A stretch of 64,000 nt of DNA from Candidatus Sungiibacteriota bacterium. GTDB lineage: Bacteria; Patescibacteriota; Minisyncoccia; Sungbacterales; HO2-52-23. Every line of letters starts with the position of its first letter. Position 1 is the stretch's first letter. The stretch covers positions 8,317 to 72,316 of the forward strand of contig JACOYX010000017.1 in the NCBI GenBank assembly GCA_016181585.1, read 5' to 3'. Positions 23,521-64,000 of this stretch are shown in pieces. The position numbers and the translations under genes are program-made. A model generated the notes under the pieces. That model did no database searches. It worked only from the letters and a program-made list of their open reading frames with translations, and had not been told where the DNA came from.

Positions 23521-23556
23521 TGCGCCCGGTTCACTGGAATCGGGCCTTTTTCTTTA
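23521..23556 (+). terminator. Rho-independent terminator gcccgg-ttcactggaat-cgggc + T-run
   Basis: Stem-loop followed by ctttttcttt. Confidence 0.5.
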
Positions 23557-23583
23557 TATTATCTCCCATGACACTTTTGCTCT

Positions 23584-23982: not shown

Positions 23983-24012
23983 ATTTTTTATCCTCACTTT
24001 CCATGACACCTC

Positions 24013-24687
24013 TTATATTTCTTTCCACTTCCTCACTTCCTCATTTGCCTTTTTATATCTCTCCTCGGTTCCCGCATCGATCCAATATCCTTTATGCAAA
24101 AAAACATTCAGTTCGCCGCTCTCGGCAAGCCGCGGAAAAATCTCTTTTTCGATCATAAATTCTTCCGGTGTGTTTTCAAACACAGTCGGCGACAAAAGAT
24201 AAAATCCGCAATTCACATACCCCGTAATTTTTTCCTGCGGTTTTTCGAGAAACTCTTTTATCTTGCCATTATCAATGTTTAAAAGCCCAAAATCCCGCGC
24301 ATCGCTCACCTCCACACACATGATAGTATTGGGCAAAGAGCGCATCATCGCGGAAATATCCACATCAGTTAAACCATCTCCATTGAGCACCAAAAATGGT
24401 TCTTTCAAATCACGACTCGCGAATTTAATTCCCCCGCCCGTACCCAAAGGCCTCGGTTCCACCACATACTCAAATTTTCCCGGCCACTTCGCCTCACAAA
24501 ATGCGATAACCTGATCTGCCTTATGATACAAACTCAAGCGAATGTCGAAGATGCCATGCTTTTGCAATAAATTTACTTGATGCTCCAAAATCGTAACTCC
24601 ACCGACTTCAGCAAGCGGCTTTGGCCTCTCTCCCGTAATTTTTGCAAGCCGGGTGCCGAAACCACCGGCTAAAATAATTGCTTTCAT
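24013..24687 (-). CDS. Sugar-phosphate nucleotidyltransferase (NTP_transferase family)
   Basis: MKAIILAGGFGTRL signature; 224 aa; the start codon lies inside the left 22-bp TIR of the MITE-like element. Confidence 0.75.
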   Translation of the reverse strand: MKAIILAGGFGTRLAKITGERPKPLAEVGGVTILEHQVNLLQKHGIFDIRLSLYHKADQVIAFCEAKWPGKFEYVVEPRPLGTGGGIKFASRDLKEPFLVLNGDGLTDVDISAMMRSLPNTIMCVEVSDARDFGLLNIDNGKIKEFLEKPQEKITGYVNCGFYLLSPTVFENTPEEFMIEKEIFPRLAESGELNVFLHKGYWIDAGTEERYKKANEEVRKWKEI

Positions 24688-25142
24688 CCCACACATAACT
24701 TACACAAGACTATATTGAAGACACTCTTTAAGTCTCCGTAAACCCTGCGCATTTAATTGGTCTGTTGCCGAATAGCACTTTGACTACAATTGCATAAATT
24801 CGGTCAAATTTTTCAAAAAATTTCTTGGCTTATCTTCCAGATAGGCCGCAAAATTTTTTGAAAAATTTGCCTCGAATTTCTGCAACTTCGCGACGTAGGC
24901 TATTCGGCAACAGACCCTTAATTTTAAAGATTGTTCTCTCTTATAAGCATCATCTTTTTACACATAAGCTTCATAGTACACAAGTCGCCATGGCAAATAC
25001 TTTTTTGTGTACGACGACTTGCCACTGTTATGCTGATATAGTCTTCTACGAAGATCACCTGTACCCTACGTACAAACCATCAACAGTTTCAGATTTGAGC
25101 AAATACACATAATACATGTTTGTGTAAGTTATGTGTGGGATG
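24685..25142. mobile_element. MITE-like element: 458 bp bounded by 22-bp perfect terminal inverted repeats (catcccacacataacttacaca / tgtgtaagttatgtgtgggatg); non-coding interior built from mosaic repeat modules
   Basis: TIRs at 24685-24706 and 25121-25142. Interior carries module D (ggtctgttgccgaatagc ... gctattcggcaacagacc) and module C (cttggcttatcttccagataggccgcaaaa), both shared with 40596-40775, 42021-42477 and 57660-57893. The TIRs supply the start codon of 24013-24687 and the last 5 codons plus stop of 25129-25857. Confidence 0.6.
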
Positions 25143-25857: not shown

Positions 25858-25886
25858 AAATAGTTTTGAGTGATACAATACTTACC

Positions 25887-43689: not shown

Positions 43690-44862
43690 TCATTTTGCCG
43701 GATGTTTTTTCAAAATCTCCTCATTTATACCCGTTCCCCACCCGGGCCGATCTTCAATAAGCAATTCCCCGTTTGCTATTTTCGGAACATGAGTAGCCAG
43801 CTCATCTTTCCATGGCACATCATCCACGTCGGTTTCCAAAATCCGCAAATTAGGAATTGCCGCAGAAAAATTGCCGGAAATAAATGTGCCTAAGTGGCTA
43901 TGATGATTATGCGGCGCTACGTTCATTTCGTAGAGCTGTGCCATATCCGCTATTTTTTTTGACTGCGCAAACCCGTTCCATGTTACATCGATACTGGCAA
44001 TATCCATGGCGCGCCGCTCAAAGTATAGCCTGAAATCGCGCGTGCCATAAAGCACCTCGCCGGAACAAATAGGAGTTTTAAGAGCATCTCGAATGATCCG
44101 CAATGATTCCGGATCATAGCAGTCGAGCTCGAGCCACATTAAATTAAATTGTTCAAGCGCGCGGCCAAGGCGGATATATCCCTCCGGTTTGAAATTAAAA
44201 TTTAAATCAAGAATAAAATCAATATCTTCGCCGATCCCCTTGCGCCACGCCGCAACATACCGCACCACATGGTCAATAATTTCTTTGCTTACATTCAATT
44301 CCGGCCCTCCCGCACTGCGGTTAAACCCGGGCATATAAATAAACGGCTTATCTCCAAAAAACGCAGGATTTGTTTTTACGGCTGTATATCCGCTTTTTTT
44401 GATTTCTTCACCGAAGACGGCGATATCTTCCAAAGATTTGATGGCGGGTTTTCCTGCTTTTTCCGCCGCACGCACTCGCGTTGTGCCGCAATGCGACCAG
44501 TATAGTTTAGCGCGATCGCGAATGGGCCCGCCAAACAAACGATGCACAGGAACGCCATACGATTTCCCCGCGATATCTAAAAGCGCGTTTTCAATCCCCG
44601 CAATTCCTTTCTGCACCACACTCCCCGTGCTTTGGCGCGTAACCGCATACATATCCCAAAACAGTTTTTCATACGCGCACGGATCTTTGCCAAGCAATAC
44701 CGGTTCCAAATCCTTGATCACGCCCGCAACGCCAGTAGTCGAACCAAAAGCATCCGTGCAGTCGCTCCATCCGGTTATTCCCCCGTCGGTTTGAATTTTT
44801 ACAAAAGCCCACGTGCGCCACCCTCCGTCGCAGTGAAGTACATCGATTTTGGTGATTTTCAT
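43690..44862 (-). CDS. Enolase-superfamily protein (mandelate racemase/muconate lactonizing enzyme family; sugar-acid dehydratase-like)
   Basis: 390 aa; MR/MLE N- and C-terminal domains with metal-ligand acidic residues (..LDLNFN.., ..LELDCYD..). Confidence 0.7.
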   Translation of the reverse strand: MKITKIDVLHCDGGWRTWAFVKIQTDGGITGWSDCTDAFGSTTGVAGVIKDLEPVLLGKDPCAYEKLFWDMYAVTRQSTGSVVQKGIAGIENALLDIAGKSYGVPVHRLFGGPIRDRAKLYWSHCGTTRVRAAEKAGKPAIKSLEDIAVFGEEIKKSGYTAVKTNPAFFGDKPFIYMPGFNRSAGGPELNVSKEIIDHVVRYVAAWRKGIGEDIDFILDLNFNFKPEGYIRLGRALEQFNLMWLELDCYDPESLRIIRDALKTPICSGEVLYGTRDFRLYFERRAMDIASIDVTWNGFAQSKKIADMAQLYEMNVAPHNHHSHLGTFISGNFSAAIPNLRILETDVDDVPWKDELATHVPKIANGELLIEDRPGWGTGINEEILKKHPAK

Positions 44863-45822: not shown

Positions 45823-45957
45823 GATTTTTCGCGGGGTTTTGAAGTTTCGCAAGCATGGTTCCCGATATTCATTATTTTATTTTTATAAATGAAAATCGGG
45901 ATTGCGAAACTTCACCCTTCAATTTGCTCGCTGGAGCAAATTGAAAAAGCGAAAATT
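45823..45957. repeat. Structured repeat family F, copy 2
   Basis: gaagtttcgcaa-gcatggttcccgatattcatt...aaatcgggat-tgcgaaacttc; side hairpin atttgctcgctggagcaaat; compensatory changes relative to copy 1. Confidence 0.7.
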
Positions 45958-50116: not shown

Positions 50117-51097
50117 CTATATCCACTTCTGATTATCAAGAGTCCATTGTATCGTGTGCTTGAGCGATTCTTCAAAGGTCATCGGCATATGCCAGCCAAG
50201 CGTTGCAAGTTTTGATCCGTCCAAAGCATACCGAAGATCATGCCCCGGGCGCGACGAATGAAAATCAACCAATTCATATTCCAAAGGCTTCCCCACAACC
50301 CGCGCAATGGACTGCGCCATCGAAAGATTGTCCACTTCCCGTTCACCCGCGATGTTGTATTTCTCGCGCTGTTTTGCATGGGCAAGTAAAAACAAAAGCG
50401 CTGAAGAAACATTTTGCGCATGAATCCATGATCTCCTCCCTGCCTGTGTTTTTGTTGGATCGGCATGAATCGTTACTTTCTCTCTCGCTAGCAAACTTTT
50501 GATAACTTTGGGGATAAATTTTTCTCGATATTGGCGATCGCCAAAAATATTCATGGTGTGCGTAATGAAAAGCGGAAGTTTATAGGTATTTGCATAGGAC
50601 AACGCAAGCTCTTCACCCCCCGCTTTCGTTGCGGAATACGGATTCGCTGAATTATAGCGATCCCACTCTTTATAGGAAACGCCTTCCTCTGCCGGCCCAA
50701 ATATCTCGTCCGTGCTGAAATAGACAAACCAAGTAAGATGAGGAAGAGACCGCGCAAAATTTAGCATATGCATGGTTCCAACCACATTGGACATAACAAA
50801 CGGCTCCGGGTTTTCAATACTGCGATCAACATGCGTTTCCGCTCCCATGTGGACAATATAATCCACCTCGCCGACTTCATGGCGCACGCCCTCGCTCAGC
50901 GATTGAGAAAAATCGCATCCCAAAACCAAAACACGTTTGTTGTCGAGCGCCGCAATATCGCGAAGCCGATCCAGCCCGTGCGACGCATAGGTCAATTTAT
51001 CGATAATCACCACGTCCCAATCGGTATTTTTCAGGACATAATCCACAAAGTGATGCCCCATAAACCCACATCCGCCGGTGATAAGAATTCTTTTCAT
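50117..51097 (-). CDS. rmlB: dTDP-glucose 4,6-dehydratase
   Basis: ILITGGCGFMGHHF; YSATKAGGE catalytic YxxxK; 326 aa. Confidence 0.85.
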   Translation of the reverse strand: MKRILITGGCGFMGHHFVDYVLKNTDWDVVIIDKLTYASHGLDRLRDIAALDNKRVLVLGCDFSQSLSEGVRHEVGEVDYIVHMGAETHVDRSIENPEPFVMSNVVGTMHMLNFARSLPHLTWFVYFSTDEIFGPAEEGVSYKEWDRYNSANPYSATKAGGEELALSYANTYKLPLFITHTMNIFGDRQYREKFIPKVIKSLLAREKVTIHADPTKTQAGRRSWIHAQNVSSALLFLLAHAKQREKYNIAGEREVDNLSMAQSIARVVGKPLEYELVDFHSSRPGHDLRYALDGSKLATLGWHMPMTFEESLKHTIQWTLDNQKWI

Positions 51098-51263
51098 AAC
51101 TTTTTATTTTTAATTATGAGGCATGACCTCATAAATGAGAAAACTCCATAATAAACATATAACAAGCGAAAAGAGCTTTACGTTTCGACCATGCTGTCTT
51201 TAAGAAACTGTCTGAAAAGTACTCTTTCGGTAAAAACAAACCGTCTTTTCGATAAAAATCATT

Positions 51264-51426
51264 AGACCTACTGCGTAAAGATTTTCGTAACGAAATTTCT
51301 TAATTTAGAGACAAAATCGTTGAATAAATTTCGAGGCCTATCGGGCTTAGATAAGTCAAGAAATTTTGAAGCGATTTTGGCCTAAATTAAGAAATTGCAG
51401 TAGAAGTATCTTTACGCAGTAGGTCT
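51264..51426. repeat. Palindromic repeat family A, copy 3 (first 95 nt identical to copy 1 at 6343)
   Basis: agacctactgcgtaaagattttcgtaacgaaatttcttaatttagagacaaaatcgttgaataaatttcgaggcctatcgg...ctttacgcagtaggtct. Confidence 0.75.
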
Positions 51427-51454
51427 ATTGATTTTAACTTCGAAAGGTACTTTT

Positions 51455-53764: not shown

Positions 53765-54298
53765 CTAGTTGAGCTTTAACAACGGCCACATTTGATCCTT
53801 CTGGGATACAAAAATATTATTATCCGGCCATTCGATCCCGATCGAGGGATCATCCCACCGTACTCCCCGTTCAAGTTCTTTAGAATAAGATTCGGAAGCC
53901 AAATACTCCACCATCGTATCACCTGCAAGCACTTGAAACCCATGTGCACACCCGCGAGGAATGTAAAGCATGGAGTGATTTTCGGGACTCAATTCAGCGC
54001 CAAACCATTTTCCGAAACTTGGAGAATCCGGCCGCAAGTCTGCGACCACATCAAAAACTCTTCCTCTCGTGCACCATATGAGCTTTTGCTCCTCCTTAGG
54101 CGCCAGCTGAAAATGCAAACCGCGGATAATTCCTTTCTTTTTATTGAGCATCTGGCTCGCCCGCACCGAAACAAAATCAATGCCTTGCTGTAAAAATTCT
54201 TCACGGGAAAAAATATATGCAAAATATCCACGTTCATCCTCGCGCGGATCCTGCGTAATATAATATGCGCCCTCACATGCGGTTTTTTGAAAAATCAT
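53765..54298 (-). CDS. rmlC: dTDP-4-dehydrorhamnose 3,5-epimerase
   Basis: RmlC cupin with GLHFQ and catalytic His/Tyr context; 177 aa. Confidence 0.8.
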   Translation of the reverse strand: MIFQKTACEGAYYITQDPREDERGYFAYIFSREEFLQQGIDFVSVRASQMLNKKKGIIRGLHFQLAPKEEQKLIWCTRGRVFDVVADLRPDSPSFGKWFGAELSPENHSMLYIPRGCAHGFQVLAGDTMVEYLASESYSKELERGVRWDDPSIGIEWPDNNIFVSQKDQMWPLLKLN

Positions 54299-55571: not shown

Positions 55572-56573
55572 TTAGATTTCATGCATATCTTCTTCCATTT
55601 GAAAAATAACCTTGCTCCCTTCCTGTTCAAACTTAAACGGCACATGAGGCAATGCGACTACCGCTTTTATTTTCTCATGCATTTCCGGCAATGCGAAAAT
55701 AAGCATGAATCCTCCGCCTCCCGCTCCCAAAAGTTTCCCTCCCAAGGCGCCCTCACTGCGCGCGCGGGCGTAGATGTCATCGATAAACGAATTGGTGATT
55801 TTTGTGCTCAGAGTGCGCTTTAATTGCCACGATTCGTGAAGCAGGGCGCCAAAATCGGCAAATCGCGCGGGACTCGTGGTCAATATTTTTTCCGCCTCAT
55901 CCACCATCTCGAGCATTCTCCACAATTCTGCGCTTTTGTCGTGCGTATTTTTAATCTGCTCAATCGCTATATCCGAAGCGTTGCGCGCTTGCCCCGTATT
56001 AAACAAAATCAAATGCGCTTCGAGTGCGCGTATAGCGGAGGTTTCAAGAGGAAGCGGCGTAACATGAATTTTTTTATCTCCCCCGAATTCAATTTTGTTA
56101 ATCCCTCCAAATGCCGTTGCGGTCTGATCCTGCGAGCCGACATTTTCTTTGATGCAGTTTTGCTCCACATGAATAGCGTCAGTAGCAAGCTGGTATTTTG
56201 TAACCTCCCTTTTCTGCAGTGCATAGAGCGCATGCAAAAAACCAACCGTAAACGCGGAGCTCGAGCCAAGCCCTGAACGCCCCGGCACGTCGGTATTGTG
56301 CTGAAGTTCGATCCCTTTGCCAAGGTTTACATACGATAAACACTCCCGCGCCGAAGGATGCCTGATTTCGTGAATATGCTGAGTTTCCTCCTGCTCACGA
56401 TAGCGGATGCGATAGTTGAAATTGAAAAATGGTGGCAGATACCTGCACGTTACATAGCAATACTTATTTATGGAAGCGGAAAGCACCGCCCCTCCATTTT
56501 TTTCGTACCAAACAGGATAATCCGTTCCGCCTCCGAAAAAAGAAATACGGAACGGCGTTCGTGTGATAATCAT
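55572..56573 (-). CDS. GHMP-family sugar kinase (HddA/fucokinase-like)
   Basis: PGRSGLGSSSAFTVGFL GHMP motif; 333 aa. Confidence 0.7.
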   Translation of the reverse strand: MIITRTPFRISFFGGGTDYPVWYEKNGGAVLSASINKYCYVTCRYLPPFFNFNYRIRYREQEETQHIHEIRHPSARECLSYVNLGKGIELQHNTDVPGRSGLGSSSAFTVGFLHALYALQKREVTKYQLATDAIHVEQNCIKENVGSQDQTATAFGGINKIEFGGDKKIHVTPLPLETSAIRALEAHLILFNTGQARNASDIAIEQIKNTHDKSAELWRMLEMVDEAEKILTTSPARFADFGALLHESWQLKRTLSTKITNSFIDDIYARARSEGALGGKLLGAGGGGFMLIFALPEMHEKIKAVVALPHVPFKFEQEGSKVIFQMEEDMHEI

Positions 56574-56594
56574 ATTTTCGACACCAGTTGATTC

Positions 56595-57650
56595 TTAAAA
56601 CGGTCCGCGAAATTTATGTTCCCAGCTATTGGGCGCTTCTTTTGGCAAAACGCAAGGCTTCAGCTCAAGTTTTTTTTCAACGCTTCGCACGATAGACAGC
56701 GAATCTGGATAAAATACATTTTCGAGCTGGCGTGTCGTAGGACAGGGAGTATGGGGAAAACCAATGCGTACGACCGGCGACTGCAGTTTTTTAAAGCATT
56801 TTTCCTGCACCAATGCGGCTACTTCCGCGCTGAACCCGCAAAAAAGCCAATCATAATCGGCAACGATGCAATGGCCTGTTTTCTCCACCGATTGAAGAAT
56901 AATTTTTTCGTCCAAGGGATAAATTGTCCGCGGATCAATAATTTCCACTTGTATACCGTGCGCCGCTTCCAGAATTTCCGCCGCTTTAAACGCCTCCACA
57001 TTCATCCATGAGGTGGCGACAATGGTGATATCTTTTCCCTTGCGGAATATTTTCCCTTTTCCCAATGGCACTTCGTAGGGCTCCGCAGGAACTTCGCCTT
57101 CAACCCAATAGAGCTGGCGATGTTCTAAAACAATCACCGGATTTTCGTCGCGGATAGCCGCAATTAAAATCCCTTTGATGTCATAAGGAGTTACCGGCAT
57201 CACCACCTTCAAACCGGGAATATGGGCAAAGATCGATTGCATGCTTTTGCTATGCTGGAATCCTTGTCCCCATCCGCGCCCGATAATAGACCGTATAACC
57301 AACGGCACTTTCAGTTTTCCTCCCGATCCGTAATGATACGAGGAAACCATATTGCCGAGCTGATTCATGGCAAGGAGCAAAAAATCACTGCGTATATGGA
57401 TATTGACCGGACGCAATCCGGCAATCGCCGCACCGAGTCCGACGCCCATAAGCGCCTCTTCGGAAAGCGGCGTGCTAAACATCCGTTCACTGCCGAATTG
57501 CTCCAAAATCCCAAACGTACTACCCGAAGTCCGCTTGTGATCCGCAACATCAAGTCCATATAAAAACACAGAAGAATCGCGCTCCATTTCTTGCTGCAGC
57601 GCTTCACCAATGGCGGTGCTGTAGGAAATAATTCTATTTTTCTTCATCAT
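56595..57650 (-). CDS. TPP-dependent 2-oxoacid dehydrogenase E1 component, beta subunit-like
   Basis: 351 aa; transketolase-like Pyr and C-terminal domains. Confidence 0.7.
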   Translation of the reverse strand: MMKKNRIISYSTAIGEALQQEMERDSSVFLYGLDVADHKRTSGSTFGILEQFGSERMFSTPLSEEALMGVGLGAAIAGLRPVNIHIRSDFLLLAMNQLGNMVSSYHYGSGGKLKVPLVIRSIIGRGWGQGFQHSKSMQSIFAHIPGLKVVMPVTPYDIKGILIAAIRDENPVIVLEHRQLYWVEGEVPAEPYEVPLGKGKIFRKGKDITIVATSWMNVEAFKAAEILEAAHGIQVEIIDPRTIYPLDEKIILQSVEKTGHCIVADYDWLFCGFSAEVAALVQEKCFKKLQSPVVRIGFPHTPCPTTRQLENVFYPDSLSIVRSVEKKLELKPCVLPKEAPNSWEHKFRGPF

Positions 57651-57659
57651 GTGGAAATT

Positions 57660-57893
57660 AGATCTGCTGATTAAAGATTTTCGTTACGATCCCGACATAT
57701 CGGGACAGAATTTCGAGACAAAATCGCTTAACAAATTTTGCGGTCTAAAACCTGACCTGCTCCGTACCGTTCGGTATGAACGGTCTGGGACGTTTCGGCC
57801 GTTTAAGGCCTATCTGTAAGGTAAGCCAAAAAGTTTTGAAGTGATTTTGGAGCGAATTGAAATTGCAGCAGAATTACCTTTACGCAGTAGGTC
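57660..57893. repeat. Palindromic repeat family A, copy 4 (long mosaic variant carrying modules E and C)
   Basis: agatctgctgattaaag...ctttacgcagtaggtca; internal hairpin tcccgacatatcgggac; modules E and C in reverse orientation relative to 42021-42477. Confidence 0.65.
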
Positions 57894-57909
57894 AATTAAA
57901 TAAAATATA

Positions 57910-58893
57910 CTAGCGCGCTTCGTAAAATACATTGGTAAAAAGTTCTTTTTGATCAGGAAATTTGGCTTTCTTGGCACGCTCAATACTCTCCGCAATCTGT
58001 TTATCAGTCACCCCTTCTTCTTTTTTTATCGCATCCTCCGTTATGCCCAGTCCAAGCAATCGCTTGCGTTGCAAGAGCACAGGATCACGTTTTTGCCATT
58101 GTATAAATTCTTTCTGCGAACGGTATCCCTGGTCAAAATCTTCATTTACTCCCACATGCTCCAGATAGCGATAATAATGCAACCGCAAAAAAGCCGGCTT
58201 TTCCTGCTCGGCATAACCCCGCATTGCTTTTTTAGTGATCGCGGAAATTTCTTCTACGTCAGTAGTGCGCGATTCAAACACATTACCGGTAAATTGTTTT
58301 AAAACATTCACGATAGACCGATATCCGTGGCGTTCTTCACCCGAAGTATGGACCGCGAGACGATTGTCTTCGCAAATAAATAAAATAGGCAGTTTCATGA
58401 GACACGCGATATTCCAGCTTTCCCAAAAAACTCCCTCATCAATCGCACCGTCTCCAAAAAATACCGCCGCCATATTTTTAGTTTTTTTCCGTTTGCATGC
58501 AAGCGCCACGCCTACCGCAACAGGAATAGTGCTTGCCACAATTGCCGATGCGCCCAAAAACCCATGCTCTGGAGAAGAAAGATGCATGGAGCCCGCCTTG
58601 CCGCGTGCAATGCCGGAAACTTTGCCGTAAAGCTCCGCAAAATAGTCATCCGTTTCTTCGGTTTTTGCAAGATACGTGGCGTGGCTTCGATAGGTGCAAA
58701 ACACCTGTCCACGCTCCCCCAGTGCATGGCACACGCCCGCCGCAATCGCTTCAGCGCCGATAGACATATGCATCGGCATTTTCATTTCATTTTCTCCGTA
58801 ATGCGCGCGAATCGCATTTTCAGCTGTACGAATAAGATACAACTGGCGATATAACTTACGGCTTGTTTCTTTTGTGACGGCGTGCTTAACCAT
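57910..58893 (-). CDS. TPP-dependent 2-oxoacid dehydrogenase E1 component, alpha subunit-like
   Basis: TPP-binding GDG(X)n motif (VFFGDGAIDEGVFWESWN); 327 aa. Confidence 0.7.
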   Translation of the reverse strand: MVKHAVTKETSRKLYRQLYLIRTAENAIRAHYGENEMKMPMHMSIGAEAIAAGVCHALGERGQVFCTYRSHATYLAKTEETDDYFAELYGKVSGIARGKAGSMHLSSPEHGFLGASAIVASTIPVAVGVALACKRKKTKNMAAVFFGDGAIDEGVFWESWNIACLMKLPILFICEDNRLAVHTSGEERHGYRSIVNVLKQFTGNVFESRTTDVEEISAITKKAMRGYAEQEKPAFLRLHYYRYLEHVGVNEDFDQGYRSQKEFIQWQKRDPVLLQRKRLLGLGITEDAIKKEEGVTDKQIAESIERAKKAKFPDQKELFTNVFYEAR

Positions 58894-58996
58894 AGTAATA
58901 ACCTTACCCCAATCATTAATTTATACAATCCTTGACATTTGTTATTTTATGAGTTCTTTTATCTATTCTCTCCCTGCTTAGCGGTTTCTAAGTAAC

Positions 58997-59875
58997 TCAC
59001 CAGCTAAGTCCTCCATCCCACGATTCGACCACATTTTTTGGAACAGTTTTCCAGATAAAAGAATGCAATGATCCGAACCATGATTGATGTTCTTTCAGAA
59101 ATCTCCACATACAATAACGCAAATAAAAGCGGTACGAACAATACTCCCGTACAACTCGCCGGTCAGCTCCAGATCCTTCTCTTTTTACCGAAACGCCATG
59201 TTGATAAATAATATGGTGATACAAACGCACACGGCAAAATTTTACTATTCCGCCTTTTTTAATAAAAGCCGCGACACATGCAAGATCGGTTAAATGCGTA
59301 AGATATTGCTCACACGGCATCAATTGGCCCATGCGGGCAAATGATTTGCGGCGGGTAAAAAGCCCCAATCCGGCGCCCGCTTTATAGCGAAACGCATCTT
59401 CCGGATGTTTGCCATAGGGAATTCCTGATGGAATATATTTACTACCCATCTTGCGGCCGTCTTTTTCTTTGGTACCGCCGCATACGAGAAGATCAATCTC
59501 CGGATTTTCATCCATAACCTTCACCACATGATCAATACCTTCTTTGAAAAATTTATCATCATCAGTGAGGAGCTGCGTATATCTTCCGCGCGCAAAAACA
59601 ATACCTTTATTAATAGCATTGGGTCCCGATTCATCCGGTTCGGAAATAAATATATCAATCACATCTTTATAGCGCTCCGCCACATCCCTTGTGCTATCCG
59701 TCGAACCACCATCCACTACGATAATTTCATCATCCGGCCCTTTGAGAGAGCGATACCGCTCTAATGCGCTCGCGAGATATTCGGCGCGATTTTTAGTGGG
59801 AAACACAAAAGAAACACGCTTCTCACAAAGCGACTCAAAAGTAGGATCATTGGCTTCCCCTTGTCTTGATTCCAT
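58997..59875 (-). CDS. GT2 glycosyltransferase; paralogue of 54473-55444
   Basis: SFVFPTKNRA; VVDGGSTDST; DDD. Confidence 0.7.
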   Translation of the reverse strand: MESRQGEANDPTFESLCEKRVSFVFPTKNRAEYLASALERYRSLKGPDDEIIVVDGGSTDSTRDVAERYKDVIDIFISEPDESGPNAINKGIVFARGRYTQLLTDDDKFFKEGIDHVVKVMDENPEIDLLVCGGTKEKDGRKMGSKYIPSGIPYGKHPEDAFRYKAGAGLGLFTRRKSFARMGQLMPCEQYLTHLTDLACVAAFIKKGGIVKFCRVRLYHHIIYQHGVSVKREGSGADRRVVREYCSYRFYLRYCMWRFLKEHQSWFGSLHSFIWKTVPKNVVESWDGGLSW

Positions 59876-59884
59876 TTAAATACA

Positions 59885-59924
59885 AGACCTACTGCGCAAA
59901 GAATTATCTTTGCGCAGTAGGTCT
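59885..59924. repeat. Minimal family-A palindrome: 17-bp perfect-stem hairpin agacctactgcgcaaag-aattat-ctttgcgcagtaggtct
   Basis: Fills nearly the whole 54-nt spacer between two minus-strand genes. Confidence 0.7.
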
Positions 59925-59929
59925 GCAAT

Positions 59930-60598
59930 TTAAGCCAGTAGCGCACCAATCGGAATCGTGTTCATGAGCGCTTCAAAAGAATCGACAACTTCATCCGCAT
60001 CTTTGAGTGCCAATCTCGGCATGGTAGAGGTGATTGCAATGCAATACGCACCCGCGCCTTTTGCCGCACTCACCCCCAAGGGCGCATTTTCCACCACTAT
60101 GCACGATTCCGCGTCAATTCCCAAGCGACGTGCGCCCTCAAGGTAAGCATCGGGAAACGGCTTCCCGCGCGCCGTCTGTTCTCCTGTCACAACCGCATCA
60201 AAGTGGGAAAGAAAATATTGTGGAGTCGATTTTTGAATACGATCCAGCCTTCCGCCGCTCACAATCGCCATAGGCACATTTTTCTTGCGAAAAAGCGTAA
60301 TATACTCTTCCACTCCGGGATATAATGAAAAATGATTATGCGAAAGATAGTATTCTTCTTTTACACGCAAAATCTCCTCCGCATTTGCGCCACCCACACC
60401 GGCACGCTCGCACACCGTCTGCGCCATGAGCGCTACAGGCATACCCTCAAGCGCGTAAAATATGTCCGCGGCAACGGCGGCATCAAAACGCCCAAGCGCA
60501 TAATTCCATGCGGCAAAGTGATCCCGCATGGTATCCGCAAGCACTCCGTCGAAATCGAAAAGTACGCCCCGAAATTTTACTGTATTATTTTTTATCAT
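59930..60598 (-). CDS. HAD-superfamily hydrolase, subfamily IA (phosphatase/beta-phosphoglucomutase-like)
   Basis: VLFDFDGVLADT motif I; 222 aa. Confidence 0.7.
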   Translation of the reverse strand: MIKNNTVKFRGVLFDFDGVLADTMRDHFAAWNYALGRFDAAVAADIFYALEGMPVALMAQTVCERAGVGGANAEEILRVKEEYYLSHNHFSLYPGVEEYITLFRKKNVPMAIVSGGRLDRIQKSTPQYFLSHFDAVVTGEQTARGKPFPDAYLEGARRLGIDAESCIVVENAPLGVSAAKGAGAYCIAITSTMPRLALKDADEVVDSFEALMNTIPIGALLA

Positions 60599-61100
60599 GC
60601 AGGAGATTTAACGCTTCTCTCATCCAATCTCCCATGTAATTATAGTGCGGGCTGGTGACTATATTTCCATCCACCACCGCCGGCGCATCCACATAGGTCG
60701 CGCCTGCGTTTTCGATATCGTCTTTAATACTGTAATATCCTGAAATCTTTTTATCTTTTACGATCCGCGCAGAAATCAGAAGTTGGGTGCCGTGGCAGAT
60801 ACAGGCAATCACTTTCCCTTTTTTATGAAATTCAGCAACCGCTTTAATGACTTCCGGCTCTTGGCGCAAATATTCCATACAGCGAGCCCCTCCCGGAAGT
60901 ATGAGAATATCATAATCACTCGCTTTGATATTTTTAAGATTGCGCGTAGGAACTACTTTAATTCCATTGACGCCGAACACAAGTTCTTTATCTTTCACCG
61001 CAACATCTAATTTAAAACCCGCCTCCTGCAGACGGTAGAACGGATAGACATATTCGACATCTTGCACAAATTTACCGGCGATAATAAGCGCTTTTTTCAT
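60585..61100 (-). CDS. DJ-1/PfpI-family protein
   Basis: CICHG nucleophile elbow; 171 aa. Confidence 0.75.
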   Translation of the reverse strand: MKKALIIAGKFVQDVEYVYPFYRLQEAGFKLDVAVKDKELVFGVNGIKVVPTRNLKNIKASDYDILILPGGARCMEYLRQEPEVIKAVAEFHKKGKVIACICHGTQLLISARIVKDKKISGYYSIKDDIENAGATYVDAPAVVDGNIVTSPHYNYMGDWMREALNLLHDKK

Positions 61101-61867
61101 ACAATTTTTACATCATGTTTAATAATTAGTAACTCTACTTCTTCCGGCATGAGCACATCTTCCCATGTTTGCGGTTCCTGCGCATTGAGCGTGTCTCCCG
61201 CCTCCGCGGCAAGTTGTCCACTGCTATAATAAAAATTTCCGCGGAGAAGCGATATGATGTCGGCATTCGCTTCCGCTAAAACAGTTTTCAATTCCATCGC
61301 ATTAGTGCAACGCGCCATCATCAGCGTACAGTCACCAAATTTTCTGCTTCGGTGGTAGCGATCCTCTTCTTGATGAAAATGGTGCAAAGTATCGTCAAGC
61401 GGCATATGGTGGGTTTTATCTTCATATCCCTTCCCGCTTCGGCCGTATGCATCGGAAAAACGCACCAGATCTTTTTTATTTACCGGAGTTTCTACTTCCA
61501 TCACCACAATTCCTTCCGGAGACAAGGCTTCAGTTGAGTGAAATGTGCCTTTTTCAATTACAAACCCCTGCCCGGCGTTTATCTCATGCGCGGTGTTGAG
61601 CGAGGTTATGCACGCATTGCCCGCAAGCAATACCAGCCCTGTTTTTTTGTTTGGGTGGCAGTGAAGCGATGTTTTATTGCCGTGCGCAATAGAAAGCAAC
61701 CAAACAGCCGTTTGATCATTTTGAAAAATAAGGTATTCATGCCCCCATGGTTTTTTTATCACCACCCGGGAATAATCGAACAAATCATTTTCCTGTGTTG
61801 CGGGATCTATGGCAAGCAAGGATATGTGCTCTTTATCTTTATCAGAAAATTGGAGTTTTTTGATCAT
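61097..61867 (-). CDS. Cupin-domain protein (mannose-6-phosphate isomerase-like cupin)
   Basis: 256 aa; HCHPNKKTGLVLLAG cupin motif. Confidence 0.5.
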   Translation of the reverse strand: MIKKLQFSDKDKEHISLLAIDPATQENDLFDYSRVVIKKPWGHEYLIFQNDQTAVWLLSIAHGNKTSLHCHPNKKTGLVLLAGNACITSLNTAHEINAGQGFVIEKGTFHSTEALSPEGIVVMEVETPVNKKDLVRFSDAYGRSGKGYEDKTHHMPLDDTLHHFHQEEDRYHRSRKFGDCTLMMARCTNAMELKTVLAEANADIISLLRGNFYYSSGQLAAEAGDTLNAQEPQTWEDVLMPEEVELLIIKHDVKIV

Positions 61868-61906
61868 ATCCTGTTGATATAAAAGTATAGGGATATTTTA
61901 AAAATA

Positions 61907-62842
61907 TCAAGAGAGACGAAACATGAATCTTGAATCCGTGTCATCCACCATAATCTCTTTCACTTTTCTGCAAATTTTCTCTGCAGTAGGTGGAAGATTA
62001 TCGAGTTGCGGCGCAAACCCCGCCGCACGTTCTTCCAAACCAAACACACGAATGTTTTTCCCGGTCTTCTGCATCAAATCAAATGCAATGCACTTTGCCG
62101 CGCCATTTTCAAAATCACCATCAAGCACCAAACCGCCGTGCCGAGAACTTTCGAGCGCACGATTCACGTCGGGTGTTGCCACAAACGGCTTTAGCCATGT
62201 GAGATGCACAACATTGCAAGTAATTCCCTCTCCCGCAAGCATATCCACTGCCTTTACTGCTTCGAGTCGCGTGGAGGAAATCGGAAAAAGCGTAAAATCG
62301 GCTTCTGAGTGTACAATATTTTCCATTTCATAATCAATCGGAAAACTTCTGCGATGTTCGCTTATGTACATCGGATCATCATGGGCCATAAAAAATTCCC
62401 ATCCGGCACGCCATTCGTTGGGAGTCATTGGTGCATAAACAAACATGCCGGGCATCCTCGTAAATAAGCTGTGGTGCGACCCCCCGGCAACGGGCCCAAT
62501 GGCTCCGTCCATCGCAATAGAACGCACAAAAATAGGACAGGGAATTCCCCACATGTCTTTCGATTTTGCCGCATAATTCACAATATGCGCGGCATTAAAC
62601 CACTGAAATCCTTGATAACGGACAATATAAATAGGCCGGCGTCCGGCAAGCGCCATTCCCACCGCAATACCGCCACCTGCGACATCCGCCATGGAGAGCT
62701 CAACCAATCCGTCTTCATCACCCATTTCAGGCACTGTTCCTCCTACCCAACCTACCGCAGTCAAGCATTGTCCCAATGCCAAACCATTGTTTTTAAGAAG
62801 ATGTTCGCGCGTTATTTGTTTAATTGTTTCTGCTACGTTCAT
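61907..62842 (-). CDS. Transketolase C-terminal section / E1-beta-like TPP-enzyme subunit
   Basis: 311 aa; Pyr and C-terminal transketolase-like domains. Confidence 0.65.
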   Translation of the reverse strand: MNVAETIKQITREHLLKNNGLALGQCLTAVGWVGGTVPEMGDEDGLVELSMADVAGGGIAVGMALAGRRPIYIVRYQGFQWFNAAHIVNYAAKSKDMWGIPCPIFVRSIAMDGAIGPVAGGSHHSLFTRMPGMFVYAPMTPNEWRAGWEFFMAHDDPMYISEHRRSFPIDYEMENIVHSEADFTLFPISSTRLEAVKAVDMLAGEGITCNVVHLTWLKPFVATPDVNRALESSRHGGLVLDGDFENGAAKCIAFDLMQKTGKNIRVFGLEERAAGFAPQLDNLPPTAEKICRKVKEIMVDDTDSRFMFRLS

Positions 62843-62851
62843 ATAAAAAGT

Positions 62852-63745
62852 TTATATTGTACCGAGTGCCAGTTGCGTTTCCCATGCCCTGTCCATAGAA
62901 TCCCGCGCATCTTCTTCTATCGACGTTATTTTTTCGTTCATACCCACTTTCTGCAATTCTTCTTTTATCAAAGCAAACCTGTCCCACTCGGGCGGACCAT
63001 CCACACCTGTACCATTATGCCAGAGATGGCGCACCACATGGATATTCATAAATATCGGCATTGCGCCTCCGAATTTCCGCATATGATGCACAATTAACCA
63101 CGGATTATCCGTAATTTCGACAGCCTGTATACCGAAAGCGGCCGCAATGTCGGTCATTTTCCAGTTTCTGCGCACCGCAACTTTAGTCAGAATCGAAAGC
63201 CCATTATCCATACAAACAAATGCCATAGGAAGTTTTTTGTGCGCAGCATATCCCAAAGCGCCAAGCACATAATCCTCTTCCGCGGATGCATCTCCCATCA
63301 CCGCAAGAGTCCGTTTATTTTTTGCAAAAGCATAACCGACTGCGATAGGAATTTGCGTTCCCATGAGCCCGTCATGACCAAACATATTAATCGCCGGCGA
63401 ATGAATAGAGGCCGATCCTCCCATGCCTTTTGCACAACCTGTCGGCCGATGAAGTAATTCATCAATAAGCGCTTCCACACTCCCTCCATAAGCAAGGTAG
63501 AGGTCGTGGCACCGGTGCTGTCCAAAAATGGCTGCATCAGGATACACCAGAGAAAGCGCCGCGGCGACAGACTCCTGTCCCACCGATAAGTAAATCGGCA
63601 TCTTTATAAGCCCTTTATCAAATGCTTTTTTTACATTCAATTCAAAATAACGAATCATGCAGATTCGTTTGAATATCTCCAGTATGTCCTGCTCGCTCAA
63701 TTCCCGTATTACGTTTTCAATTGCTCCGGTATTTTGAGAACGCAT
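62852..63745 (-). CDS. Transketolase N-terminal section / E1-alpha-like TPP-binding subunit
   Basis: TPP motif (AVMGDASAEEDYVLGALGYAAHKKLPMAFVCMDNG); 297 aa. Confidence 0.65.
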   Translation of the reverse strand: MRSQNTGAIENVIRELSEQDILEIFKRICMIRYFELNVKKAFDKGLIKMPIYLSVGQESVAAALSLVYPDAAIFGQHRCHDLYLAYGGSVEALIDELLHRPTGCAKGMGGSASIHSPAINMFGHDGLMGTQIPIAVGYAFAKNKRTLAVMGDASAEEDYVLGALGYAAHKKLPMAFVCMDNGLSILTKVAVRRNWKMTDIAAAFGIQAVEITDNPWLIVHHMRKFGGAMPIFMNIHVVRHLWHNGTGVDGPPEWDRFALIKEELQKVGMNEKITSIEEDARDSMDRAWETQLALGTI

Positions 63746-63759: not shown

Positions 63760-64000
63760 TTATCGCAACGGCACACGCTCCCGTTTTGCATTTTTACCGG
63801 GAATAAATTCAACTCCTTTATTCAAATAAGTAATTTGCATAATTGGACGCGGGCGGTCTTTGGTAAGGTTGGGGTAAGAGCCATGCACCACGTTTCCGTT
63901 AAGAATAAGCATGCCGCCCTTTTTGACATATACCGTAGATTCTTTTCCCTTATGCTTTGCAGGAAGAAGAACTGTATTGCCGGGATTGGTACCCGGCTTT
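63760..64000 (-). CDS. PhyH-like Fe(II)/2OG oxygenase, C-terminal fragment; 5' part lies beyond window end
   Basis: Minus-strand translation ...KPGTNPGNTVLLPAKHKGKESTVYVKKGGMLILNGNVVHGSYPNLTKDRPR... ends at TAA 63760. Confidence 0.4.
   Translation of the reverse strand, partial: KPGTNPGNTVLLPAKHKGKESTVYVKKGGMLILNGNVVHGSYPNLTKDRPRPIMQITYLNKGVEFIPGKNAKRERVPLR

Follow-up and report, generated by a model that had tools for sequence, protein, structure and literature searches.

Carbon branching of deoxy-keto sugars has been described for the alphaKADH2 class, which includes AviB1/B2, Pau11/12, the aldgamycin enzyme, and KbDH-alpha/beta; these enzymes use pyruvate as donor, and for KbDH-alpha/beta the branching was demonstrated in vitro (PMC12247030, PMC4753412). 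YerE-type enzymes take CDP-4-keto-3,6-dideoxyglucose as acceptor and either plain or functionalized keto acids as donors (PMC9306805). Here, we describe a 64-kb stretch of DNA (hereafter, the window) from an uncultured ultra-small bacterium, with two alpha/beta pairs of E1 genes inside a very large sugar-coat gene cluster. We propose, with a probability of roughly 0.6, that both pairs act on their own as ThDP carboligases with the 2-oxoacid-dehydrogenase-E1 fold (alphaKADH2 type) and serve glycan biosynthesis outside any dehydrogenase complex, a function predicted from the genes alone.

Results and Discussion

Two nonequivalent E1 pairs in one locus

The nine named genes of the two E1 modules all lie on the minus strand (Table 1). 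Open reading frames named in the original prediction were recovered at their positions, apart from the nucleotidyltransferase, which is present but ends at 24696 (predicted as 24013-24687). Pairs 1 and 2 belong to different families and are not equivalent; identity is 26% between the alpha and 23% between the beta subunits, which indicates old paralogues and not a recent duplication. The 259 nt that separate E1alpha-1 from E1beta-1 are taken up by a MITE-like repeat, whose pattern was found 4 times against 0 expected, with three intergenic copies aligned. Both of its terminal inverted repeats, back to back, constitute the hairpin just 3' of the HAD stop codon (folding energy -35.1 kcal/mol, z = -11.4), where the pair-2 transcription unit probably ends.

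Table 1. Features of the two E1 modules and of possibly associated genes, in window coordinates
Feature	Position	Strand	Evidence
Sugar-1-phosphate nucleotidyltransferase, ManC/HddC type	24013..24696	-	NTP_transferase 6.6e-30
Enolase-superfamily acid-sugar dehydratase	43690..44862	-	MR_MLE_N and _C domains
RmlB-like NDP-hexose 4,6-dehydratase	50117..51097	-	TIGR01181 285 bits, cutoff 365
RmlC-type NDP-4-keto-6-deoxyhexose 3,5-epimerase	53765..54298	-	dTDP_sugar_isom 1e-58
GHMP sugar kinase, HddA-like	55572-56573	-	GHMP_kinases_N and _C domains
E1beta-1, PDH-type	56595-57650	-	Transket_pyr 1e-31, Transketolase_C 2e-33
MITE-like repeat with terminal inverted repeats	57636..57908		pattern search
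E1alpha-1, PDH/acetoin-type	57910-58893	-	E1_dh 2.7e-47
GT2 (family-2 glycosyltransferase), between E1 modules	58997-59875	-	Glycos_transf_2 1.8e-19
Perfect 18-bp hairpin	59885..59924	-	terminator-like scan
HAD-IA hydrolase, beta-phosphoglucomutase/BT2127-like group	59930-60598	-	HAD_2 2.3e-26
DJ-1/PfpI protein, PfpI/YhbO-type	60585-61100	-	PF01965 1.8e-48
Cupin, two-barrel metal (bicupin)	61097-61867	-	weak PMI C-terminal domain and Cupin_2 match
E1beta-2, pyrimidine-binding beta subunit	61907-62842	-	Transket_pyr 4.4e-12, 46 bits
E1alpha-2, ThDP-binding alpha subunit	62852-63745	-	E1_dh 4.7e-16, 59 bits
PhyH-type Fe(II)/2-oxoglutarate oxygenase, 3' part	63760..64000	-	Pfam PhyH match to fragment

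The nucleotidyltransferase is the only PF00483 (sugar-1-phosphate type) gene in the window and lies 31 kb from the E1 genes; its top model is mannose-1-P guanylyltransferase (130 bits; HddC, 106 bits), it shares 37-39% identity with the NTP-transferase domain of archaeal NTPt-CBS-GHMP fusions, and matching genes occur in 27 loci. The RmlB-like dehydratase is a possible source of the keto-sugar acceptor within the window, and the enolase-superfamily enzyme, for which galactonate and mannonate dehydratase are the top models, might tentatively be taken as the source of a 2-keto-3-deoxy acid donor for the E1 pairs.

Acceptor-making enzymes upstream

The contig L001, which matches the window end with 0 mismatches in 3015 nt, carries directly upstream of that end a 4,6-dehydratase-family gene, a ColD-type 3-dehydratase, four SDRs, and the PhyH oxygenase. 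The last of these, of 250 aa, lies 14 nt upstream of E1alpha-2, runs past the window end (full gene at 7826-8578 of L001), and has family members in 15 of the 73 related loci. The ColD-type and 4,6-dehydratase-family genes are just beyond the window end, not inside it. The top PDB match of the ColD-type protein is ColD (2GMS, 175 bits), and its motif FSFYFGHQLSTIEGG has His replacing the Schiff-base Lys, as do 34 of 36 DegT-family genes beside pair-2 homologues. The 4,6-dehydratase and the ColD-type enzyme would together yield a 4-keto-3,6-dideoxy acceptor, as in yersiniose-type branching.

These neighbors also bear on the idea that the E1 pairs make acyl-ThDP for N- or O-acylation of a sugar via an amine, hydroxyl, CoA, or carrier, with no C-C bond to the ring. 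E1 enzymes do form acyl-ThDP equivalents naturally, the clusters are abundant in tailoring enzymes, and in Nitrospira loci pair 2 comes directly after genes for a class-I aminotransferase and a classical SDR. Yet hydroxyalkyl-ThDP can donate an acyl group only when lipoamide or some other oxidant is present, and the loci show no recurrent oxidant partner and, among the annotated gene families of 73 loci, no recurrent acyltransferase. Given that the DegT-family neighbors are in 34/36 cases dehydratases (His) and not aminotransferases (Lys), the adjacent genes would usually not provide an amino sugar acceptor. We consider acylation improbable.

Pair 1 resembles PDH/acetoin E1 in a different setting

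Judged by scores and residues, pair 1 is close to PDH/acetoin E1. E1alpha-1 has a canonical GDG...N motif and the active-site His (alignment to human E1alpha), and E1beta-1, which matches the G. stearothermophilus PDH E1beta of solved structure over its full length (227 bits), keeps both the catalytic Glu and His128 (residue check) and reaches 301 bits against the PDH E1beta subfamily model NF006667 (cutoff 321). All residues required for lipoamide chemistry are retained, and the case against a classical role is made by genomic context alone. On these similarities, pair 1 (or, with lower likelihood, pair 2) could be the E1 of a normal catabolic dehydrogenase for pyruvate or acetoin with E2/E3 elsewhere and an incidental glycan setting, the more so as absence of E2/E3 from the source covers only the 64-kb window, with ~20 kb of the same contig outside. 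We give this very little credence. With TIGR03182 (cutoff 394), E1alpha-1 reaches 243 bits, and none of the four E1 subunits attains the cutoff of any NCBIfam PDH equivalog or subfamily model. E2, E3, and lipoate genes are absent from the window, where a Pfam scan of coding-strand ORFs of at least 150 aa and three plus-strand genes found no lipoyl, 2-oxoacid_dh, or Pyr_redox domain, in agreement with the earlier claim of no E2 or E3 component. The search extended to 77 related cellular loci, covering pair-1-type and pair-2 loci: E2/E3 were found neither among the annotated recurrent gene families of 73 genome loci (a few minor families left out) nor in four independent pair-1-type loci. 2-Oxoacid dehydrogenase complexes are, to our knowledge, generally missing from CPR bacteria.

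CPR homologues of E1alpha-1 are instead located in glycan clusters. In three other CPR genomes (loci L075, L076, and L078), an NDP-hexose 4,6-dehydratase gene adjoins the E1alpha start in such a cluster, either overlapping it by 8-17 nt or leaving a gap of 3 nt; this dehydratase (RmlB model 178 bits, GMD model 172 bits) shares ~50% identity with the L001 fragment. The E1alpha and E1beta genes of L075-L078 abut or overlap, with RmlC, SDR, B12-rSAM, and GT genes around them, and in L076 the RmlC gene follows E1beta. For pair 1, pyruvate is probably the donor and a C2 branch is probably added.

Pair 2 belongs to a divergent family within a conserved cassette

Pair 2 represents a family of its own that has been transferred widely and that by its alignments is a divergent heteromeric E1 with a predicted altered active site. 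E1alpha-2 (113 bits against TIGR03182, cutoff 394) has 2167 homologues, with 55-84% identity among the matches listed, and its family alignment holds the GDA...DN ThDP motif and His243 invariant. The C-terminal domain of E1beta-2 is divergent (partial Transketolase_C match, 25.9 bits); in this family Asp occupies the ThDP-activating Glu position (Bst beta-E59) in 60/61 members, and beta-His128 is replaced by Ala in 47/61, with an invariant His 5 residues further on.

Pair 2, the bicupin, the PfpI/DJ-1 protein, the HAD hydrolase, the HddA-like kinase, and B12-radical-SAM enzymes form a conserved cassette, which is carried by CPR bacteria, DPANN archaea, Nitrospira, SAR11, and 94 IMG/VR contigs. 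The cassette, with pair 2 as its core, is previously undescribed and common to very distant microbes; the original prediction had correctly listed pair 2, the cupin, DJ-1, and the HAD protein, but did not recognize them as a conserved unit. Among 33 pair-2 loci flanked on each side by at least 8 kb, an NDP-sugar SDR is near pair 2 in 32, the GHMP kinase in 28, B12-rSAM in 25, the cupin in 23, and DJ-1 and the ColD-type gene in 22 each. The bicupin (56/73 loci) has invariant H69, C70, H71, K74, H110, E124, and E126, and its AF2 model (pLDDT 94) matches only generic metal cupins in Foldseek. Gene fusions join it to E1alpha (6 loci) and to an Fcl-like SDR (5 loci), tying pair 2 to NDP-sugar-acting enzymes. 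The DJ-1/PfpI protein (51/73 genome loci and 78/80 IMG/VR loci) scores 154 bits against TIGR01382, above the cutoff of 139, and has a Cys-His nucleophile elbow (CICHG). The HAD hydrolase, whose top NCBIfam models stay below their cutoffs, is predicted to be either a phosphatase or a pyrophosphatase and is found in 31/73 loci, mostly with the cupin/DJ-1 genes on one side and the GHMP kinase on the other. That kinase (49/73 loci; HddA model 146 bits, cutoff 600) is a presumed anomeric kinase.

In some loci, one of two unrelated acid-sugar dehydratase families takes the same position, flanked by the cupin and HAD genes: the enolase superfamily (f38, 5 loci; 27-29% identity to the enzyme in the window) or the UxaA/GarD type (f30, 6 loci). 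The products of such dehydratases are alpha-keto acids. The pair-2 donor may therefore be other than pyruvate, and its branch need not be C2.

The same genes could place pair 2 before nucleotide activation, where it would act, by decarboxylation or ketol transfer, on a 2-keto-3-deoxy sugar acid or other keto acid supplied by sugar-acid dehydratases, cupin, PfpI protein, and HAD enzyme; the unusual free sugar, e.g., a 2-deoxy or chain-extended aldose, would then be activated by the HddA-like kinase and nucleotidyltransferase. Besides the two dehydratase families and the enolase-superfamily member in the window itself, this is consistent with the order E1alpha-E1beta-cupin-DJ1-HAD-(SDR)-GHMP-NTPt that recurs in CPR loci, with fusion of the kinase to NTP_transferase-CBS in 7 archaeal loci (compare Fkp), with the weak similarity of the cupin to phosphomannose isomerase, and with the presence of cupin, DJ-1, and HAD genes beside pair 2 but not in the pair-1-only L076, which shares the same kinase (52% identity). 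However, we know of no E1-type enzyme that releases an aldehyde or acts as a transketolase, and the 50 listed fold neighbors of the E1alpha-2 AF2 model (pLDDT 86) are all PDH/BCKDH dehydrogenase E1alpha (TM 0.69-0.83), with transketolase and DXS folds absent from these 50. Sugar-acid dehydratases are missing within 10 kb in most loci, the cupin fusion partner in 5 loci is of NDP-sugar type, and a Nitrospira variant without cupin, DJ-1, and HAD keeps the E1 pair, kinase, and ColD-type gene. Since the same kinase also stands beside pair-1-type modules directly after the 4,6-dehydratase, its proximity is not specific to a role before activation, which we regard as possible but doubtful.

Proposed pathway

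Branching of a nucleotide-activated keto-sugar by E1 pairs without E2/E3, the core of the original prediction, is supported by the upstream 4,6-dehydratase and ColD-type genes, the dehydratase overlap of pair-1 relatives, the SDR in 32/33 loci, and the lack of recurrent E2/E3. In such a pathway, the HddA-like GHMP kinase would phosphorylate a sugar at C1 and the ManC/HddC-like transferase would nucleotidylate the sugar-1-phosphate, probably to a GDP-sugar, with the HAD enzyme as a putative distal phosphatase or pyrophosphatase. The 4,6-dehydratase would then yield an NDP-4-keto-6-deoxy sugar and the ColD-type enzyme its 4-keto-3,6-dideoxy form, upon which the E1 heterotetramer would decarboxylate an alpha-keto acid and attach the resulting acyl-anion equivalent, bound to ThDP, at the ring ketone. 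The product would be an acyl-branched sugar with a tertiary alcohol, as in yersiniose or paulomycose. Tailoring by SDR reductases, the PhyH oxygenase, and methyltransferases could precede its transfer by the neighboring GT2 enzymes. The parts that the original prediction assigned to the GHMP kinase and the HAD phosphatase are plausible. Pair 2 may act together with the bicupin and PfpI protein on another, possibly sugar-acid-derived, keto acid; thus, of the acyl or hydroxyethyl C2 branch originally envisaged, carbon branching is supported, but a C2 size is not required. The branching model leaves the cupin, PfpI protein, and HAD enzyme without explanation, and GHMP kinase proximity and the sugar-acid dehydratases of some cassettes equally fit a role before nucleotide activation.

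Comparison with known systems

On gene content, both E1 pairs match alphaKADH2 by class description, being E1-type and without E2/E3. Compared to PDH/acetoin E1, pair 1 is near by score and residues whereas pair 2 is divergent. The salvage-type activator Fkp likewise combines NTP-transferase and kinase in one fusion, as in the archaeal loci. The GDP-heptose and lincosamide GDP-octose pathways provide the logic for the less likely reading in which pair 2 acts before nucleotide activation, where a ThDP enzyme would be the C-C step.

Two E1 pairs within a large glycan-biosynthesis region

The original prediction had placed two E1-type alpha/beta pairs, without E2 or E3 partners, among sugar-activating genes. 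All nine ORFs of the flagged sub-cluster were recovered exactly where predicted with the expected Pfam and NCBIfam domains, and no lipoyl, E2-catalytic or E3 domain occurred in any window ORF scanned, and the observation is therefore confirmed. Reasoning from gene context and precedent, we propose, at a probability of roughly 0.6, that both pair 1 (E1alpha-1 and E1beta-1) and pair 2 (E1alpha-2 and E1beta-2) are stand-alone ThDP carboligases adding an acyl branch to an NDP-keto sugar.

The window has a GC content of ~44% and a uniformly negative GC skew, with nearly all genes on the minus strand. When its ORFs of at least 150 aa were scanned with Pfam and NCBIfam, overlapping opposite-strand ORFs being excluded, a single very large glycan-biosynthesis region emerged. 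Apart from the genes listed in the table, it encodes MurB, a GT4 glycosyltransferase, several GT2 enzymes, an initiating Bac_transf enzyme, a Wzy_C ligase-like protein, two UDP-glucose/GDP-mannose dehydrogenases, several SAM methyltransferases, a TylC3-type C-methyltransferase, RmlC, an FdtA-like cupin, a carbamoyltransferase, three glycerophosphotransferase-like proteins, a GFO/IDH/MocA oxidoreductase, a D-2-hydroxyacid dehydrogenase and an enolase-superfamily acid-sugar dehydratase. NeuB-family synthases, CMP-sugar-synthetase-like genes and a UDP-GlcNAc 2-epimerase are also present, and the cluster probably makes one or more nonulosonic acids as well. The NUDIX hydrolase gene starts 4 nt past the end of the nucleotidyltransferase gene; NUDIX genes also directly precede E1alpha-2 homologues in three homologous loci (L006, L008 and L009) and lie near the pair-1-type module of another (L076).

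An Rfam scan of the window returned zero hits, and promoter-like sites occurred there at chance frequency. A MITE-like repeat of ~150-270 nt with terminal inverted repeats of ~19 nt (AGACCTACTGCGTAAAGAT ... ATCTTTACGCAGTAGGTCT) occupies five or six intergenic sites, and one copy takes up the 259 nt that separate E1alpha-1 from E1beta-1; in homologous loci these two genes adjoin or overlap one another. Two further repeats were seen: a 56-nt motif in the gene-poor stretch at 22.4-24.0 kb, each copy ending at an apparent ribosome-binding site and start codon on the minus strand, and a 130-nt element whose two copies lie ~40.6 kb apart.

Coordinates of genes, repeats and operons in the window and in homologous loci
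Feature	Sequence	Position	Remark
E1alpha-1 (pair 1)	window	57910-58893	
E1beta-1 (pair 1)	window	56595-57650	
E1alpha-2 (pair 2)	window	62852-63745	
E1beta-2 (pair 2)	window	61907-62842	
RmlB-like gene	window	50117-51097	NDP-hexose 4,6-dehydratase
NeuB-family synthase paralogue	window	12751-13860	
NeuB-family synthase paralogue	window	25887-26876	
NeuB-family synthase paralogue	window	42478-43557	
CMP-sugar-synthetase-like gene	window	15583-16299	
CMP-sugar-synthetase-like gene	window	25129-25878	
UDP-GlcNAc 2-epimerase	window	18486-19658	
Nucleotidyltransferase	window	24013-24696	
NUDIX hydrolase	window	23584-24009	
MITE-like repeat	window	6332-6502	
MITE-like repeat	window	12236-12374	
MITE-like repeat	window	~40652-40712	
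MITE-like repeat	window	51254-51440	
MITE-like repeat	window	57636-57908	
Minimal MITE-like copy	window	59885-59924	after HAD gene; two inverted repeats only, perfect 18-bp hairpin, -35 kcal/mol
56-nt motif	window	22686-24037	four copies
130-nt element	window	5254-5384	
130-nt element	window	45823-45955	
Pair-1-type E1 pair with split transketolase	L075	7025-16963	one operon
Pair-1-type E1 pair with split transketolase	L078	6989-11779	one operon
Extra ORF between cupin and E1alpha	L089	7613-7996	
Extra ORF between cupin and E1alpha	L108	7634-8029	
Extra ORF between cupin and E1alpha	L090	7607-7996	

Sequence, active sites and fold of the two pairs

All four subunits have the E1 domain architecture in Pfam (E1_dh in the alpha chains, Transket_pyr and Transketolase_C in the beta chains). 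Recent duplication of one pair is ruled out by identities of 26% (alpha) and 23% (beta) between them. Pair 1 strongly resembles PDH E1, yet falls under the curated NCBIfam cutoffs, scoring 243 bits against 394 for PDH E1alpha and 301 against 321 for PDH E1beta; the nearest relatives of E1alpha-1, ~60% identical, come from Patescibacteria, and Transketolase_N reaches 20 bits on this subunit, under the Pfam cutoff of 22. Alignment to Geobacillus stearothermophilus E1beta places Glu59 and His128 intact in E1beta-1, and the alpha-subunit active-site His is likewise kept; pair 1 retains the ThDP-activating Glu and the His residues used in reductive acylation of lipoamide. No E2 or E3 genes were found in the four loci of pair-1 relatives (L075-L078). 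Formation of acyl donors by the E1 pairs is improbable.

Pair 2 is far more divergent from PDH E1 than pair 1, with NCBIfam scores of 113 bits for E1alpha-2 (cutoff 394) and 53 bits for E1beta-2 (cutoff 321). E1alpha-2 has 2167 homologues, with identities of 55-84% among the matches listed, and its family shows an invariant GDA...DN ThDP motif and an invariant active-site His. In the E1beta-2 family, numbered on the same reference, position 59 lies in gap-free register and is Asp in 60 of 61 sequences, position 128 is Ala in 47 of 61 with an invariant His five residues later, and the C-terminal domain is divergent. The 50 Foldseek neighbours listed for an AF2 model of E1alpha-2 (pLDDT 86) were all PDH/BCKDH E1alpha, at TM scores of 0.69-0.83; E1alpha-2 is therefore an E1-fold enzyme and not a transketolase. 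Split transketolases have been proposed for branching in miharamycin and amipurimycin. Such a function, or a DXS-like one, was rejected: Pfam transketolase and DXS matches were marginal or under cutoff, with no Transketolase_N match on E1alpha-2, and the fold neighbours listed for that subunit were all E1alpha.

With the E1 components of pyruvate, acetoin and branched-chain dehydrogenases, the pairs share the fold, the ThDP motif and the alpha2beta2-type split, and pair 1 has all catalytic residues. They differ in that no E2/E3 partner was seen, in scores under curated cutoffs and in their glycan-biosynthesis setting, and pair 2 differs further in its Asp for Glu, the loss of beta-His128 in most members and the divergent beta C-terminal domain. 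A classical dehydrogenase role is highly improbable, and housekeeping PDH or acetoin dehydrogenase was rejected as the main reading on the lack of E2/E3 in the window and among the annotated recurrent families of related loci, and on the scores.

Relatives of pair 1 in deoxysugar loci

In pair-1-type loci, E1beta follows directly after E1alpha, and in three of them (L075, L076 and L078) an NDP-hexose 4,6-dehydratase gene either overlaps the E1alpha start by 8-17 nt or ends 3 nt before it. This dehydratase scores 178 bits with the RmlB model and 172 bits with the GMD model, and is ~50% identical to the dehydratase fragment on L001, a contig identical to the window end. RmlC, Fcl-like SDRs, a B12 radical-SAM enzyme, NUDIX, glycosyltransferases and a flippase surround the pair-1 relatives, as does an HddA-like kinase 52% identical to that of the window.

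True split transketolases adjoin pair-1 relatives in L075 and L078. In both loci the two occur within one operon, and L075 additionally carries a YerE-like ALS-family enzyme adjoining a DmpFG-like aldolase/acetaldehyde dehydrogenase pair, giving three kinds of ThDP enzyme; the latter arrangement is the one described for erwiniose (PMC9306805). Three ThDP enzyme classes have been proposed for sugar branching (PMC12247030), and the E1 pairs, split transketolases and YerE-like enzyme together indicate that CPR glycan loci are rich in all three.

A putative deoxysugar supply upstream of pair 2

The gene context of pair 2 is extended by L001, an 11-kb Logan contig that shares 3015 nt with the window end at 0 mismatches. 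From its far 5' end toward E1alpha-2, this contig carries the 3' part of a 4,6-dehydratase-family (GMD-family) gene, a 249-aa gene on the opposite strand without a family match, a DegT-family gene, four SDRs (two of them GDP-fucose-synthase-like), an inositol-monophosphatase-like gene on the opposite strand and a PhyH oxygenase gene, which lies 14 nt ahead of E1alpha-2. The best PDB match of the DegT-family protein is ColD, the GDP-4-keto-6-deoxymannose 3-dehydratase (2GMS, 175 bits). His replaces the Schiff-base Lys in this protein, whose motif FSFYFGHQLSTIEGG lines up with FSSFYSHHIATMEGG of ColD, and the same dehydratase His occurs in 34 of 36 DegT-family genes of related loci. Replacement of this Lys by His is the defining trait of ColD/E1 dehydratases. 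A function as aminotransferase was ruled out by the His for Lys and by ColD as best match, and a ColD-type dehydratase is preferred.

Acting together, a 4,6-dehydratase and a ColD-type enzyme yield an NDP-4-keto-3,6-dideoxyhexose, an acceptor of the type to which YerE, a ThDP enzyme, adds the branch on the way to yersiniose (PMC9306805). For the proposed carboligases, the kinase and nucleotidyltransferase would provide a base sugar, which these two dehydratases would then process; SDRs, the oxygenase and methylases would tailor the branched sugar.

Spread and composition of the pair-2 cassette

Pair 2 is the core of a conserved cassette with a bicupin, a PfpI/DJ-1 protein, a HAD enzyme and an HddA-like GHMP kinase. 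Scanning one genome per species for E1alpha-2 homologues yielded 73 loci, spanning CPR phyla, DPANN archaea (Woese-, Nano- and Pacearchaeota), Nitrospira, Omnitrophota, Elusimicrobia, Planctomycetes, Deltaproteobacteria, Acidobacteria and SAR11; one lies on a complete chromosome, that of Candidatus Pelagibacter sp. Uisw_130 (SAR11). By tblastn, matches were found in these 73 loci to E1beta-2 (70), cupin (56), DJ-1 (51), GHMP kinase (49), Fcl-like SDR (42), SDR314 (40), ColD-type gene (38), HAD (31), GMD-type gene (22), PhyH (15) and pair 1 (3-4). De novo clustering of all locus ORFs added three B12-binding radical-SAM families, NTP-transferase, NUDIX, cytidylyltransferase-like and HemN-like radical-SAM families, and SIS isomerases in 10 loci; E2 and E3 were absent among the annotated recurrent families. 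Where pair-2 loci had at least 8 kb on each side, 32 of 33 carried an NDP-sugar SDR.

The partner genes are joined in several ways. Cupin and E1alpha are fused in six loci and Fcl-like SDR and cupin in five, and the slot between cupin and HAD holds an enolase-superfamily acid-sugar dehydratase in five loci and a UxaA/GarD-type dehydratase in six others. Both dehydratase types yield 2-keto-3-deoxy acids, which are alpha-keto acids. The bicupin itself has invariant residues His69, Cys70, His71, Lys74 and His110 (family alignment and model), and a PDB profile search and Foldseek matched it only to generic metal cupins (quercetinase, oxalate decarboxylase, cysteine dioxygenase, BacB/AerE and PMI). 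The DJ-1/PfpI protein scores 154 bits with TIGR01382 (cutoff 139) and has a CICHG Cys-His nucleophile elbow, which places it in the PfpI/YhbO subfamily.

Two lineages deviate from this layout. Eight Nitrospira loci (L013, L015, L018, L021, L022, L024, L026 and L031) are without cupin, DJ-1 and HAD; a classical SDR and a class-I aminotransferase, for which a GntC-like model is best at 310 bits, under its cutoff, stand directly before the E1 pair, and two B12 radical-SAM genes and a ~1400-aa protein follow it. In seven DPANN archaeal loci (L007, L012, L027, L039, L054, L068 and L071), a single ~680-aa protein adjoining the cassette combines NTP_transferase, CBS and HddA-like GHMP kinase domains, a fusion that suggests direct nucleotidylation of the kinase product. 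The alternative that pair 2 acts before nucleotide activation, building a new sugar skeleton on which kinase and nucleotidyltransferase would then work, is less likely.

The cassette also occurs on 94 contigs classed as viral in IMG/VR (L079-L158; 8-318 kb), where it includes RmlC, DJ-1, cupin, E1alpha, E1beta, the ColD-type gene, Fcl-like SDRs, PhyH and GMD. These contigs have a GC content of 29-53%, mostly 29-40%, and at the DNA level come closest to loci of marine SAR11 and gammaproteobacteria (65-88% identity); no close E1alpha-2 homologue was found in GenBank phage genomes. Marine viruses possibly carry the cassette, the contigs being either viruses or miscalled genomic islands. Marine and IMG/VR versions have an additional ORF of ~130 aa, which sits between cupin and E1alpha and overlaps the E1alpha start, and their E1alpha is ~20 residues shorter at the N-terminus.

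Donors, products and significance

Pair 1 fits the known pyruvate (C2) class, whereas pair 2, given its altered catalytic residue, its fixed partners (cupin and PfpI) and the sugar-acid dehydratases seen in some loci, may use a functionalised keto acid as donor. A bolder reading, which we advance tentatively and with some doubt, is that the pair-2 cassette represents an undescribed, horizontally mobile pathway whose E1-fold ThDP enzyme takes a non-pyruvate, sugar-acid-derived keto acid, its product being a major unseen surface sugar common to CPR bacteria, DPANN archaea, SAR11, Nitrospira and possibly marine viruses. Its parts would be the E1 pair with Asp for the universal ThDP-activating Glu, a 3-His-type bicupin, PfpI and HAD, with or without a sugar-acid dehydratase. 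Two outcomes can be envisaged: (i) a long polyhydroxylated branch on GDP-4-keto-3,6-dideoxyhexose, which would give a caryophyllose-like higher-carbon sugar, or (ii) a new deoxy sugar skeleton that would subsequently be activated by kinase and nucleotidyltransferase. A literature search for this gene combination returned nothing relevant, and no description of the pair-2 cassette was found in the searchable literature.

E1-type enzymes of two separate families are common in the surface-glycan clusters of uncultured lineages. To our knowledge, next to nothing is known of the glycans on the cells of CPR bacteria and DPANN archaea, whose surfaces matter because these organisms live attached to host cells. 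In the pair-2 family an altered catalytic residue goes with fixed partner proteins, and the cassette that they form has passed between bacteria and archaea and possibly also marine viruses. Since the cassette is found in Nitrospira MAGs and a complete SAR11 genome, lineages with cultivable members, the predicted branched sugar and its enzymes become directly testable if a cultured carrier is found. E1-type enzymes of this kind could also widen the set of ThDP biocatalysts for chiral tertiary alcohols.

Comparison with known systems

The closest precedent is the alphaKADH2 type, whose members for sugar C-branching include AviB1/AviB2 (avilamycin), Pau11/Pau12 (paulomycin), the aldgamycin E1 pair and KbDH-alpha/beta (kibdelomycin); these enzymes are known from natural-product (antibiotic) clusters and are reported to be specialised for pyruvate and C2 branches (PMC12247030, PMC4753412). 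The likeness lies in gene architecture and context: a two-gene E1 alpha/beta without E2/E3, standing alone in a deoxysugar cluster among whose genes are an NDP-hexose 4,6-dehydratase and SDRs of the ketoreductase type; for such a pair keto-acid decarboxylation followed by ring-ketone addition would be the expected chemistry. The pairs described here differ in that their loci serve cell-surface glycans, in CPR bacteria, DPANN archaea, Nitrospira and SAR11, and pair 2 differs in its great divergence (113 bits with the PDH E1alpha model), its Asp at the ThDP-activating position and its association with cupin, PfpI and sometimes sugar-acid dehydratases.

Yersiniose and erwiniose are made by a CDP-glucose 4,6-dehydratase and the E1/E3 enzymes of 3-deoxygenation, with YerE or ErwE as ThDP enzyme and YerF as reductase (PMC9306805). 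The predicted order is alike, from 4,6-dehydratase through a His-type PMP/PLP 3-dehydratase and a ThDP branching enzyme to a reductase, as is the idea of functionalised keto-acid donors made by neighbouring genes. YerE and ErwE, however, are single-chain enzymes of the acetolactate-synthase/decarboxylase superfamily, in contrast to the E1 alpha/beta pairs, and neither pair has the YerE-type architecture in Pfam (a single chain of ~560 aa with TPP_enzyme_N, _M and _C). Resemblance of the present 3-dehydratase to ColD also points to chemistry on GDP-mannose, without an E3 reductase, instead of the CDP-glucose E1/E3 system.

Much of the colitose pathway (ManC, GMD, ColD, ColC) has counterparts in or beside the window, namely ColD-type and GMD-family dehydratases, Fcl/ColC-like SDRs and a ManC-like nucleotidyltransferase. 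Colitose biosynthesis itself proceeds without a ThDP enzyme, cupin, PfpI, GHMP kinase or radical-SAM enzyme, and the 4-keto-3,6-dideoxy intermediate of that route would here be intercepted for branching.

GDP-D-glycero-alpha-D-manno-heptose is made by GmhA, HddA, GmhB and HddC, and the lincosamide GDP-octose by LmbR, N, P, K and O. An HddA-like GHMP kinase, a phosphatase and an HddC/ManC-like nucleotidyltransferase likewise occur together here, with SIS genes in 10 related loci. Yet the kinase scores 146 bits against the NCBIfam HddA cutoff of 600, the HAD is of type IA and not the type IIIA of GmhB, and no SIS gene was found among the annotated window ORFs; kinase and HAD thus lack the equivalog match, HAD-IIIA type and SIS partner of the GDP-heptose HddA/GmhB enzymes. 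The suggestion that cupin, GHMP kinase, HAD and nucleotidyltransferase form a mutase-independent supply line for GDP-mannose or GDP-heptose is weakened because L076, a locus with pair 1 only, has the same kinase without cupin or HAD. Finally, the C-C step of the octose pathway is performed by a transaldolase, as opposed to the E1-type ThDP enzyme proposed here.
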